A stretch of 64,000 nt of DNA from Escherichia coli (lineage in GTDB: Bacteria > Pseudomonadota > Gammaproteobacteria > Enterobacterales > Enterobacteriaceae). Positions 4,120-62,655 of this stretch are shown piece after piece. The stretch lies in assembly GCF_030384885.1 (NCBI RefSeq), contig NZ_CP128613.1; one strand, written 5' to 3'. The position numbers and the translations under genes are program-made. The notes beneath the pieces were generated by a model. It worked only from the letters and a program-made list of their open reading frames with translations. It did not search any database and was not told the DNA's origin. Positions within the stretch are counted from its first letter, which is position 1. The number at the start of each line of letters is the position of its first letter.

Positions 4120-4129
4120 TTTATAAAAT

Positions 4130-4160
4130 GCCGGATAAGGCGTTCACGCCGCATCCGGCA
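4130..4160. repeat. REP (repetitive extragenic palindrome) element between convergent yphB and yphA
   Basis: gccggataaggcgttcacgccgcatccggca imperfect palindrome typical of E. coli REP. Confidence 0.6.
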
Positions 4161-4165
4161 TGTTT

Positions 4166-14611: not shown

Positions 14612-15352
14612 ATGCTGCAAAATATTCGAATTGTGCTGGTGGAGACGTCACACACCGGCAATATGGGTTCTGTTGCCCGTGCCATGAAAACAATGGGATT
14701 AACCAATCTGTGGCTGGTTAATCCACTAGTGAAACCTGACTCCCAGGCGATTGCTCTGGCAGCAGGGGCCAGCGACGTGATTGGTAATGCTCACATTGTC
14801 GATACGCTCGACGAAGCGTTAGCCGGTTGTAGCCTGGTGGTTGGCACCAGCGCACGTTCCCGCACGCTGCCATGGCCGATGCTCGACCCGCGCGAATGCG
14901 GTTTGAAAAGCGTCGCTGAAGCGGCAAATACGCCGGTGGCACTGGTTTTTGGTCGTGAGCGCGTTGGCTTGACCAATGAAGAGTTGCAAAAGTGCCATTA
15001 TCATGTCGCCATTGCCGCTAACCCGGAATACAGTTCGCTGAACCTGGCGATGGCTGTTCAGGTTATTGCCTATGAAGTGCGCATGGCCTGGCTGGCGACT
15101 CAGGAGAACAGCGAGCAGGTTGAACATGACGAGACGCCGTATCCGCTGGTCGATGATCTGGAACGTTTTTACGGTCATCTTGAACAAACGCTGCTGGCAA
15201 CCGGCTTTATCCGTGAAAACCATCCGGGGCAGGTGATGAATAAGCTGCGTCGTCTGTTTACCCGTGCGCGCCCGGAAAGCCAGGAGTTGAATATCCTGCG
15301 CGGGATTCTGGCTTCTATTGAGCAGCAGAATAAAGGTAACAAGGCCGAATAA
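14612..15352 (+). CDS. trmJ: tRNA (cytidine/uridine-2'-O)-methyltransferase TrmJ (SPOUT)
   Basis: 246 aa; divergent from suhB, immediately upstream of isc operon. Confidence 0.9.
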
Positions 15353-15360
15353 CCGAGGTT

Positions 15361-15446
15361 GCCTGATGCGGCGCTTAACGCGTCTTGTCAGGCCTACATT
15401 GTACTGAACCCCTGGTCGGATAAAGTGTTTACGCCGCACCCGACAA
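15361..15446. repeat. REP element cluster between trmJ and iscR
   Basis: gcctgatgcggcgcttaacgcgtcttgtcaggcctac and a second cggataaag...acgccgcacccg unit. Confidence 0.6.
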
Positions 15447-15499
15447 CAGGTACAAACGCCACGATAAAAAAATGGCACTGAAGGTTAAATACCCGACTA

Positions 15500-15585
15500 A
15501 ATCAGTCAAGTAAATAGTTGACCAATTTACTCGGGAATGTCAGACTTGACCCTGCTATGCAATACCCCCACTTTTACAATAAAAA
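15500..15585 (+). promoter_or_regulatory. iscR promoter region with probable IscR autoregulatory operators
   Basis: TTGACC -35-like hexamers (aaatagttgaccaattt, cagacttgaccctgctat) upstream of iscR ATG; IscR autorepression of PiscR is established, exact site boundaries not verified here. Confidence 0.45.
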
Positions 15586-15621
15586 ACCCCGGGCAGGGGC
15601 GAGTTTGAGGTGAAGTAAGAC

Positions 15622-16110
15622 ATGAGACTGACATCTAAAGGGCGCTATGCCGTGACCGCAATGCTTGACGTTGCGCTCAACTCTGAAGCGGGCCCGGTAC
15701 CGTTGGCTGATATTTCCGAACGTCAGGGAATTTCCCTTTCTTATCTGGAACAACTGTTTTCCCGTCTGCGTAAAAATGGTCTGGTTTCCAGCGTACGCGG
15801 ACCAGGCGGTGGTTATCTGTTAGGCAAAGATGCCAGCAGCATCGCCGTTGGCGAAGTGATTAGCGCCGTTGACGAATCTGTAGATGCCACCCGTTGTCAG
15901 GGTAAAGGCGGCTGCCAGGGGGGCGATAAATGCCTGACCCACGCGCTGTGGCGTGATTTGAGCGACCGCCTTACCGGTTTTCTCAACAACATTACTTTAG
16001 GCGAACTGGTTAATAACCAGGAAGTGCTGGATGTATCTGGTCGTCAGCATACTCACGACGCGCCACGCACCCGCACACAAGACGCGATCGACGTTAAGTT
16101 ACGCGCATAA
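15622..16110 (+). CDS. iscR: Fe-S cluster assembly transcriptional regulator IscR (Rrf2 family)
   Basis: 162 aa; Rrf2 HTH and Cys cluster C-x5-C-x5-C ([13 protein letters not shown]). Confidence 0.95.
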
Positions 16111-16225
16111 AAGATAAAAAGTATTCAGAATCAGGCCGGGGCGTCTCGCGCTCCGTAAACACGGTCGTACATCCAGCCGGTAGCCTGGTTCCTTGCATTG
16201 AGTGATGTACGGAGTTTATAGAGCA

Positions 16226-22682: not shown

Positions 22683-22690
22683 ACTAATAT

Positions 22691-22789
22691 GCCGGATGCG
22701 GCGTAAACGCCTTATCCGACCTACAAAGTATTGTGAATTCAAAAAATTGCGATTCCCTTGTTGGCCTGATAAGCGTAGCGCATCAGGCA
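22691..22789. repeat. REP elements (two units) between pepB and sseB
   Basis: gccggatgcggcgtaaacgccttatccgacctac and ggcctgataagcgtagcgcatcaggca. Confidence 0.65.
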
Positions 22790-22824: not shown

Positions 22825-23601
22825 ATGTCCGAAACAAAAAACGAACTTGAAGACCTGCTGGAAAAAGCAGCAACCGAACCGGCGCACCGCCCGGCCTTTT
22901 TCCGTACTCTACTGGAATCCACTGTCTGGGTACCAGGTACGGCGGCGCAGGGCGAGGCAGTGGCTGAAGATAGCGCGCTTGATTTACAGCACTGGGAAAA
23001 AGAAGACGGTACCAGCGTCATTCCTTTTTTCACCTCGTTAGAAGCACTGAAACAGGCGGTTGAAGACGAACAGGCGTTTGTCGTAATGCCCGTTCGCACA
23101 CTGTTTGAGATGACCCTTGGCGAAACGCTCTTCCTTAATGCCAAATTGCCAACCGGTAAAGAGTTTATGCCGCGTGAAATCAGTTTGTTGATTGGTGAAG
23201 AAGGAAATCCGCTGAGTAGTCAGGAAGTACTGGAAGGCGGTGAATCGCTGATATTATCGGAAGTCGCAGAGCCGCCAGCGCAAATGATTGATTCACTCAC
23301 CACCTTATTTAAAACCATTAAGCCGGTGAAGCGTGCTTTTATTTGTTCAATTAAAGAGAACGAAGAGGCACAGCCTAATTTACTTATTGGTATTGAAGCC
23401 GATGGCGATATCGAAGAAATTATTCAGGCGGCGGGAAGTGTAGCGACCGATACATTACCTGGTGATGAACCAATAGATATTTGCCAGGTGAAAAAAGGGG
23501 AAAAAGGAATTAGCCACTTTATTACCGAACATATTGCGCCATTCTATGAACGTCGCTGGGGTGGATTCCTGCGTGATTTTAAACAGAATCGAATAATTTA
23601 A
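22825..23601 (+). CDS. sseB: Rhodanese-enhancing protein SseB
   Basis: 258 aa from ATG 22825 (MSETKNELEDLL...); the track ORF starts 3 codons earlier at GTG. Confidence 0.8.
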   Translation: MSETKNELEDLLEKAATEPAHRPAFFRTLLESTVWVPGTAAQGEAVAEDSALDLQHWEKEDGTSVIPFFTSLEALKQAVEDEQAFVVMPVRTLFEMTLGETLFLNAKLPTGKEFMPREISLLIGEEGNPLSSQEVLEGGESLILSEVAEPPAQMIDSLTTLFKTIKPVKRAFICSIKENEEAQPNLLIGIEADGDIEEIIQAAGSVATDTLPGDEPIDICQVKKGEKGISHFITEHIAPFYERRWGGFLRDFKQNRII

Positions 23602-23603
23602 AA

Positions 23604-23628
23604 TATGCCGCCCCAAAGGGCGGCATTC
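23604..23628 (-). terminator. Hairpin terminator at 3' end of minus-strand ryfA transcript (also follows sseB)
   Basis: gccgcccc-aaa-gggcggc stem-loop; U-rich tract follows on the minus-strand RNA. Confidence 0.5.
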
Positions 23629-23905
23629 GGGCTTACTTGCTGTTCTGAAGGTTGTTAACCATCAGTAAATTGTTGCCGGAGGGACTCCGGTTATTATTTA
23701 CTTCGGAAAACAGCGCACCAGAAACAATAAGTACGATACAGAAGTACCGTATCTTCATTGTGCGGTCCATGCGAAGACCGCATCACGACAGCACCACTGG
23801 CGATATTGCCGCGATAGCAAGCGCTGTGGGGTGCCTGCATTTACGGTCATGGAACATCCTTTCCTAAAGCCAGCGCCCGTTTGCGAGACGGCGAAAAGGG
23901 CCGTC
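23625..23905 (-). ncRNA. ryfA: ryfA small RNA / mRNA of small toxic protein (boundaries approximate)
   Basis: Conserved sseB-sseA spacer of about 500 bp; K-12 ryfA maps between sseA and sseB; contains a minus-strand small hydrophobic ORF and ends at hairpin 23606-23623; 5' end not determinable from sequence. Confidence 0.5.
23632..23769 (-). CDS. Small hydrophobic protein, type I toxin-like (TimP-like), inside ryfA
   Basis: My own minus-strand translation: MDRTMKIRYFCIVLIVSGALFSEVNNNRSPSGNNLLMVNNLQNSK (45 codons; alternative start at second Met gives 41 aa); single predicted TM/signal-like segment; below the 60-aa cutoff of the ORF track; weak SD. Confidence 0.4.
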
Positions 23906-61848: not shown

Positions 61849-62550
61849 CTGAACACACCGGCACAGCTCTCTTTGCCACTTTATCTTCCTGACGACGAAA
61901 CCTTTGCAAGTTTCTGGCCGGGGGATAACTCCTCTTTACTGGCCGCGCTGCAAAACGTGCTGCGTCAGGAACATAGCGGTTACATCTATCTCTGGGCACG
62001 CGAAGGCGCGGGGCGCAGCCATCTGCTGCACGCGGCTTGCGCGGAATTGTCGCAGCGTGGCGATGCGGTGGGCTATGTCCCGCTGGATAAACGCACCTGG
62101 TTTGTTCCGGAAGTGCTCGACGGTATGGAGCATTTGTCGCTGGTCTGTATCGACAACATTGAGTGTATTGCAGGCGATGAGTTGTGGGAGATGGCGATTT
62201 TCGATCTCTACAATCGAATTCTGGAATCGGGTAAAACACGGTTGTTGATCACCGGCGATCGTCCACCGCGGCAGTTGAATCTGGGATTACCGGATCTCGC
62301 GTCGCGTCTCGACTGGGGGCAGATCTACAAATTGCAGCCACTTTCTGATGAAGATAAGTTGCAGGCGCTACAGTTACGCGCGCGTTTGCGTGGTTTTGAA
62401 CTGCCGGAAGATGTGGGGCGTTTCTTGCTGAAGCGGCTCGACAGAGAAATGCGCACGTTATTTATGACGTTGGATCAGTTGGATCGTGCGTCGATTACCG
62501 CGCAACGTAAGCTGACCATTCCGTTTGTGAAAGAGATTCTGAAACTGTAG
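61849..62550 (+). CDS. hda: DnaA-inactivating AAA+ protein Hda (non-AUG CUG start)
   Basis: Track ORF 61804..62550 (248 aa); the recalled mature Hda N-terminus ([21 protein letters not shown]) begins at CTG 61849. Confidence 0.8.
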
Positions 62551-62563
62551 ACAAGACGTTTAT

Positions 62564-62626
62564 TGTCGGATGCGCACCCATAGTATTCGTCGGCCGGATA
62601 AGACGCGGCAAGCGTCGCATCCGGCA
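62564..62626. repeat. REP elements between hda and yfgD
   Basis: tgtcggatgcgcacc and gccggataagacgcggcaagcgtcgcatccggca. Confidence 0.6.
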
Positions 62627-62655
62627 ATGTGCTTCAACTAGCGATGGAGCACTTC

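Follow-up and report, generated by a model that had tools for sequence, protein, structure and literature searches.

A BIME-2-type REP unit in the 3′ untranslated region of trmJ, upstream of the iscR control region of Escherichia coli

The iscR gene of Escherichia coli lies downstream of trmJ, and the spacer between both genes contains imperfect palindromes of the REP type upstream of a promoter which is controlled by IscR itself. This arrangement raises the question what kind of element these palindromes form and whether they play a role for trmJ, for isc or for neither of them. An earlier note on the same DNA, a stretch of 64,000 nucleotides which is called the window in the following, had listed REP clusters at four sites and had supposed that the copy between trmJ and iscR may insulate isc from trmJ read-through. 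The element at 15361–15444 is almost certainly one BIME-2-type unit, composed of an inverted Z2, a short linker and a decayed Y, and as such a representative of the high-copy REP family of E. coli. By its position it belongs to the 3′ untranslated region (UTR) of trmJ, and it lies outside the conserved control block of iscR.

REP units of the window

Positions 1 to ~44000 of the window are identical to E. coli strain 2013C-4282, which agrees with the E. coli origin that had been read from the palindromes. The neighbouring genes trmJ and iscR as well as the other genes flanking REPs were confirmed by the annotation of this identical genome, in which yfgD is annotated as arsC. The open reading frame of trmJ, which encodes a tRNA Cm32/Um32 methyltransferase, extends on the plus strand from 14612 to 15352 and ends with the stop codon TAA at 15350–15352; iscR follows on the same strand at 15622–16110. 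The spacer of 269 nt between them was matched in 5,424 of 5,426 complete E. coli genomes. Collinearity with NZ_CP027579.1 ends at ~44000 within the region of sinH and a giant adhesin, and this break points to an indel or a variable island. Furthermore, hda is annotated as frameshifted in 2013C-4282 (L132:50-750; window ~61849–62550), and in this stretch 2013C-4282 and the window differ by 1 nt in length (1,600 versus 1,601 nt aligned).

The exact 13-mer REP core GCCKGATGCGRCG has four matches in the 64-kb window compared with 0.01 expected, one at each of the four named sites: 4147–4159 (minus strand), 15361–15373 (plus), 22691–22703 (plus) and 62613–62625 (minus). None of 100 shuffles exceeded one match, and the count of exact cores excludes palindromes that arose by chance. 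If up to two mismatches are allowed, the core becomes uninformative over the whole window (16 matches versus 8.0 expected); since this pattern is close to chance, the case for REPs rests on the exact cores and on full-length matches. For the latter, the consensus strings of Y, Z1 and Z2, which are backed by perfect matches of 31/31 and 27/27, were compared with the 64-kb window by blastn-short, and a head-plus-tail scan combined with folding served as the second method. With these methods the 64 kb yielded six palindromic units in total and nothing further. The earlier list of sites is thus complete for the window, as significant consensus matches fall only at those sites, and exact cores, consensus matches and hairpin folds together bear out REP-type palindromes at all four of them.

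Three other search patterns were not suited for these repeats. A full-length consensus of the Stern type (38 nt, loop of fixed size) had zero matches in the window because the loop lengths of Y and Z2 differ, and zero matches were also obtained with the bare frame CKGAT-N18-ATCMG. A search of the whole window for inverted repeats with exact seeds of 8 nt misses REPs because of their stem mismatch; one such internal mismatch is seen in the folds of Z2 and Y, as in the REP family. Five of the six units form hairpins of −13 to −23 kcal/mol with z values between −2.6 and −5.9. A further defining feature of REPs is the tetranucleotide GTAG (CTAC on the opposite strand) at the foot of the palindrome (PMC3333891), which is not preserved in all units of the window.

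A single canonical Y REP is located on the minus strand at 4130–4159 between the convergent genes yphB and yphA. It matches the Y consensus at 4130–4160 (31/31, E 4e-13) and folds into a hairpin at 4126–4163 (−23.3 kcal/mol, z = −5.7), but carries AAAT at 4126–4129 in the place of GTAG. The convergent genes hda and arsC (yfgD) flank a single Z2 REP at 62593–62625, also on the minus strand, with a consensus match at 62592–62626 (31/35, E 1e-3), a hairpin at 62589–62629 (−23.3 kcal/mol, z = −5.1) and GTCG at 62589–62592, which deviates from GTAG by one mismatch. The adjacent stretch at 62564–62580 is at best a remnant of a REP, with a match of 8 nt only and a fold of −7.8 kcal/mol (z = −1.4). 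Downstream of pepB, in the pepB/sseB spacer, a BIME-1-like unit is found on the plus strand at 22691–22789. It comprises a Y REP (22691–22720; consensus match 22690–22724, 33/35, E 9e-11) with the foot CTAC at 22721–22724, an L-type linker of 35 nt and a Z1 REP (22763–22789, plus strand; 27/27, E 7e-11) with GTTG, one mismatch from GTAG, at 22760–22763. The linker contains the IHF-like sequence ATTCAAAAAATTG at 22737–22749; this motif has one mismatch and is not significant alone, and the IHF consensus is not enriched across the window (61 matches versus 51 expected).

All six units are intergenic and are distributed over two tandem and two convergent gene pairs. The term clusters, used in the earlier note, does not apply to 4130–4160 and 62593–62625, which are single REPs. 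That REPs are ordinary for this type of genome holds: the 45-nt Z2 unit has matches in 5,425 of 5,426 E. coli genomes, with a median of at least 40 per genome and a count of at least 40 in 5,105 records, and the Z2 at trmJ/iscR is therefore a member of a dispersed high-copy family. The pattern search with the REP consensus led to the same picture, namely units that align with Y and Z2 REPs and are not distributed as single-copy sequences. The further statement that most non-coding palindromes of the window are due to REPs is contradicted by a survey of its strong 40-nt hairpins: REPs make up just 3 of 101 local clusters, and among the intergenic clusters there are many stem-loops of the terminator type.

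The spacer between iscR and iscS (16115–16224) was considered as a fifth site and rejected, as it has no match to the REP core or consensus; on the plus strand it is matched by the Rfam family iscRS with 127 bits. The original iscRS paper reportedly speaks of a REP-like structure in this spacer. Further Rfam matches at the gathering level in the window are ryfA at 23600–23904 (minus strand, 312 bits), overlapping the annotated small toxin gene timP, and sroE at 36753–36844 (plus strand, 110 bits).

The trmJ/iscR element and the iscR control region

The Z2 REP of the element is present in inverted form on the plus strand at 15361–15397, so that its stem starts 8 nt beyond the stop codon of trmJ. 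Besides the exact core it shows a Z2 consensus match at 15379–15397 (18/19, E 1e-3) and the foot CTAC at 15394–15397; one internal stem mismatch is retained, and a rare A-to-G change (CTTGTCAGG) is present. The predicted hairpin has −18.9/−20.6 kcal/mol and z = −4.6. It is followed by a linker of 17 nt (15398–15414, plus strand), at the end of which CTGG (15411–15414) is found instead of the expected GTAG. The Y REP at 15415–15444 (plus strand) is degenerate: its stem is eroded, its core on the minus strand has two mismatches, its consensus match at 15417–15438 (19/22) is weak and alone non-significant, and its hairpin reaches only −10.3/−12.2 kcal/mol (z = −1.6). In this strain the pair thus possesses one strong hairpin of two, and the fold of the entire trmJ 3′ UTR is unexceptional (z = −1.6). 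At the gathering level Rfam gives no match to the element. The family naRNA4 (RF02564), which is derived from a Z2/Y unit (Rfam), is hit below its threshold with 30.1 and 25.2 bits compared with 59.5 bits required, and the match of 30.1 bits spans 15414–15477 and runs past the Y unit. A terminator scan of 15353–15621 revealed no intrinsic terminator on the plus strand, and a T-run is absent after both REP hairpins. There is also no clear Rho-loading site, because the downstream C/G ratios are merely 1.0–1.7.

The region downstream of the element is of a different nature. A spacer of 41 nt with an A7 tract (15448–15488, plus strand) leads to the binding sites of IscR, and conservation with Citrobacter and Enterobacter already extends into its 3′ part (GGCACTGAAGGTTAA). 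The IscR type-1 site A (15489–15513, plus strand) with its half-sites CCGAC ... GTCAA is conserved across the Enterobacteriaceae. Directly adjoining is the type-1 site B of 25 bp (15514–15538, plus strand), which contains the −35 hexamer TTGACC at 15518–15523. We take CAGACT at 15541–15546 to be the putative −10 hexamer, and transcription of iscR presumably starts near 15554 (EcoCyc). The names site A and site B and the 25-bp consensus go back, as we assume, to Giel 2006. The half-sites CCGAC and TTGAC of both sites fit the rule given in PMC8561392. In the 5′ UTR of iscR a short hairpin, CCCCGGGCAGGGG, is located at 15587–15599 (plus strand), which is near-invariant in the close genera of the Enterobacteriaceae and almost invariant in ~25 species of this family. 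Read on the minus strand (15600–15586) the same hairpin is followed by a T-run and resembles a terminator.

From the end of the REP pair the distance to site A is 44 nt and that to the −35 hexamer 73 nt; it is in this sense that the pair is situated directly upstream of the iscR promoter, as had been stated. The conserved control region begins after the repeat, at ~15470 and at the latest at 15489, and the repeat is no part of it; regulation of isc is carried by the conserved promoter block and not by the REP. A rare allele affects this block itself: in strain 27992 (L004) a deletion of 44 nt, aligned to 15448–15491, takes the spacer and the left half-site of site A (AAATACCCG), which could alter the autoregulation of IscR.

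Variation within E. coli and among other species

Within E. coli the element is part of a hypervariable cassette at 15346–15447, which contains one to three BIME units or a BoxC/TMECO element and whose left edge lies in the last two codons of trmJ. Strain MG1655 carries three units of 91 nt and has a spacer of 451 nt. A systematic sample of 60 genomes, drawn in even steps along a ranking of the E. coli genomes, yielded 30 genomes with one unit, five with two, nine with three and 15 with another element, besides one poor assembly. Such an unrelated element occupies the slot for example in E. coli D1 (L003:1381-1500). It is a BoxC/PIT/TMECO type A triplex-motif repeat, which fills the slot in 1,439 of 5,426 E. 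coli genomes (~26%), among them the sampled O157:H7 strains, and occurs with a median of 14 copies per genome; the slot element CCCTCGCCCCTTCGGGGAGAGGGTTAGGGTGAGGGG is one loop base off entry 7 in Table 1 of PMC4666352. The allelic breakpoint between BoxC and BIME lies inside the final two codons of trmJ, which measures 738 nt in the BoxC allele instead of 741 nt.

The single-unit alleles also vary among each other. MIN6 has preserved CTAC as well as GTAG, E2348/69 has neither of them, and one single-unit allele has a linker that is 10 nt longer; in the comparison of alleles, an intact GTAG was found in MIN6, in E. albertii and in the first units of MG1655. The allele of the window is rare: over 569 nt, 22 genomes reach an identity of at least 99%, and the exact 45-mer of its Z2 is present in five genomes. 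Differences between strains in the number of tandem BIMEs have already been described (PMC3333891). Here, recombination or slippage among the tandem units of 91 nt, or else a REP-associated transposase, would change the unit number (one to three). The slot thus tolerates zero to three units or a different repeat.

For the comparison with other species a degenerate pattern of the iscR start was scanned over species-representative genomes, which led to 120 loci, and in nearly all of them trmJ is located directly upstream of iscR. The close set comprises 25 species with a TrmJ of at least 90% identity. The block from site A to the iscR start is conserved in sequence among the close species and also in length, with ~128–135 nt in 22 of the 24 species in which site A was located and 151–171 nt in the other two, whereas the trmJ stop codon and site A are separated by anything from 16 to 135 nt. 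In this variable part, G+C-rich REP-like palindromes with CTAC/GTAG feet were found in 13 of the 25 close species, starting 0–15 nt past the stop codon of trmJ. Their sequences differ from the units of E. coli, and they are classed as REPs by their form. Carriers include E. albertii, Salmonella diarizonae, several Citrobacter, Enterobacter asburiae and Kluyvera, as well as Trabulsiella, Klebsiella oxytoca and Pseudescherichia. Two Pseudocitrobacter possess inverted TMECO pairs, Enterobacter sp. Bisph1 has a terminator-like stem with a T-run in the slot, and in four to five of the 25 close species little or nothing was found there. Among more distant Enterobacterales, and also in Aeromonas, the trmJ stop codon is usually 4–30 nt away from the IscR sites, without a hairpin; this short arrangement was seen in Pantoea, Erwinia, Cedecea, Aeromonas and others.

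Possible roles and related systems

The role which we tentatively favour by analogy, at somewhat less than an even chance, is that of a local element of the trmJ 3′ end, which would act as an exonuclease barrier and as a weak, Rho-assisted attenuator. If identity and function are taken together, we regard this as probably the best explanation of the element. Most likely, the Z2 hairpin (about −20 kcal/mol, no U-tract) would block 3′-to-5′ exonucleases and thereby set the 3′ end of the trmJ mRNA, and it would probably also attenuate read-through toward iscR weakly with the aid of Rho. In addition, the REP may lower the translation of TrmJ by stalling terminating ribosomes, as the stop codon is no more than 15 nt away; REPs at a distance of <16 nt can lower the translation of the upstream gene (Liang 2015, via PMC12306157), and the Z2 falls within this range. 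Such effects have precedents. Hairpins of REPs withstand 3′-to-5′ exonucleases, and of the Rho-dependent transcripts 24% have REPs at their 3′ ends (PMC6061677). REP325, a Z2/Y BIME, is a partial Rho-dependent terminator and a stabiliser of the upstream mRNA (bioRxiv 10.64898/2026.03.23.713779). Tandem gene pairs with REPs show higher ratios of upstream to downstream expression, with large effects of the context (Harris 2026, bioRxiv 10.64898/2026.03.23.713779); this study stresses the context dependence of REP effects and reports that mRNA half-lives are not lengthened by REPs genome-wide. Any effect is best read as modest, and it must be dispensable, because many strains and species lack the element or carry something else in its place.

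A search for transcript or protein data on this junction was without result. For MG1655 the BIME has no 3′ end in the supplementary tables of Adams 2021 that were searched, usable transcript evidence was also not found in the supplements of Dar and Sorek 2018, RepRanger 2025 and Ton-Hoang 2012, and a literature search for trmJ and iscR together with REP or read-through returned nothing specific. With respect to trmJ, the tables of Adams 2021 yielded a single 3′ end, a very abundant one at MG1655 position 2663263 on the minus strand (score ~2.1–2.6e5), which is located 60 nt inside the trmJ open reading frame (window ~14672, plus strand); no obvious terminator-like structure was seen there (fold z = −0.85).

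A serious rival, which we nevertheless consider unlikely, is that the element is a neutral passenger, that is a decaying selfish or domesticated repeat which has landed where a gene end and a promoter leave a permissive gap, with no measurable effect on trmJ or isc. The degraded stem of the Y unit and the loss of its GTAG, the allelic variability of both REPs, the changing number of units, the unrelated repeat in about a quarter of the genomes and the absence of the element from several Enterobacteriaceae and more distant species would all be expected from such a repeat, and the missing 3′ end in the tables of Adams 2021 and the unchanged half-lives reported by Harris 2026 fit it as well. However, the Z2 hairpin has remained strong (z = −4.6), and a stable hairpin 8 nt past a stop codon is expected to affect decay or translation termination. 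Moreover, the 13 of 25 close species with REP-like palindromes 0–15 nt past the trmJ stop codon exceed the ~6% of K-12 tandem gene pairs that have REPs (146 versus 2,451), an excess which shared ancestry could explain. The same occupancy might also mean that the 3′ flank of trmJ is a selected hairpin slot, which has been refilled repeatedly in Enterobacteriaceae by REP pairs, BoxC/TMECO or a terminator. This is a quite improbable reading, and shared ancestry together with a permissive site explains the occupancy more simply than selection. If it were true, the hairpin would tune the output of TrmJ or shield the IscR-controlled promoter, and the E. coli alleles with one, two or three units or BoxC would be lineage-specific expression variants.

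Insulation of isc from trmJ read-through, as supposed in the earlier note, is plausible by analogy and corresponds to the attenuator role turned into a purpose. That the REP pair is kept as a dedicated insulator, which would stop transcription of trmJ from disturbing the IscR-controlled isc promoter, is very unlikely. Transcription attenuation by BIME-2-type REPs is a finding for which Espeli 2001 is reportedly cited. It would be in favour of insulation that trmJ is not followed by an intrinsic terminator, that such REPs can attenuate transcription in a partly Rho-dependent manner (bioRxiv 10.64898/2026.03.23.713779) and that most close species have some hairpin in the slot, including the terminator-like stem of Enterobacter sp. 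Bisph1. But a conserved requirement for an insulator is hard to reconcile with the comparative data: Pantoea, Erwinia, Cedecea, Aeromonas and others have no hairpin and a trmJ stop codon 4–30 nt from the IscR sites, and four to five close Enterobacteriaceae have little or none. The alleles of E. coli differ three-fold in unit number or carry BoxC, BoxC/PIT elements are reported to be without terminator activity (PMC4666352), and in the present strain only one strong hairpin is left.

At the level of DNA, the BIME might serve as a binding and cleavage site of gyrase or as a topological barrier between the units of trmJ and isc; this is the role to which we assign the smallest chance. For a link of BIMEs with gyrase and for topological insulation by REPs, Espeli and Boccard 1997 is said to be the source. 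PMC3333891 likewise mentions BIME-2 as a reported target of gyrase and REPs as reported topological insulators. Yet one unit whose Y has decayed makes a poor site for a cruciform or for gyrase, and in Harris 2026 neither an influence of REP325 on the compaction of the chromosome nor contacts between REPs were found. A role of this kind does not exclude roles at the RNA level and would be compatible with the exonuclease barrier and attenuator favoured here.

REP and BIME elements, their types, their location in 3′ UTRs and their variation in copy number between strains are all already known, and the trmJ/iscR element is an ordinary example of them. What remains mildly interesting is that structured repeats of different families are found just past the trmJ stop codon across many Enterobacteriaceae. 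The natural alleles with zero to three hairpin pairs or BoxC beside a well-studied promoter also form a ready series for the study of attenuation and stabilisation by REPs.

Among known systems, an intrinsic terminator shares with the trmJ/iscR element the G+C-rich stem-loop just past the stop codon but differs by its T-run. Repeats of the BoxC/PIT/TMECO group are, like REPs, G+C-rich, hairpin-forming and dispersed, and they use the same slot in ~26% of E. coli, in Pseudocitrobacter and in K. oxytoca; they represent an unrelated sequence family (CCCTCGCCCC-loop-GGGGAGAGGG-TTA-GGGTGAGGGG) which is absent from the window. The REPIN/RAYT system is characterised by two inverted REPs with CTAC and GTAG feet face to face, and intact units such as those of MG1655 and E. 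albertii can be folded as a single long hairpin of −40 kcal/mol. The copy of the window lacks the GTAG on the Y side that is required by TnpA_REP, and for this reason it is probably no longer a substrate of this enzyme.

Like the trmJ/iscR element, REP325 (yjdM/yjdN) lies between two tandem genes, in the 3′ UTR of the first one, and lacks a U-tract; it consists of 12 palindromic units with measured terminator and stabiliser activity, whereas the trmJ/iscR element has one unit in this strain. According to PMC3333891, BIME-1 is composed of Y, a long L linker and Z1, and BIME-2 of Z2 and Y which are inverted relative to each other and joined by a short linker. The pepB/sseB element agrees with BIME-1 in its single copy, its Y with CTAC, its 35-nt linker with an IHF-like motif and its Z1. 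For the trmJ/iscR element BIME-1 was rejected, as it has a Z2 and not a Z1, a linker of 17 nt and no IHF motif. With Z2 and Y in inverted order and a short linker it corresponds to BIME-2, from which the copy of this strain deviates by the loss of GTAG and of much of the stem in its Y REP, and it shares with BIME-2 the variation of tandem copy number between strains, since two to three units of 91 nt are present at the locus in other E. coli.
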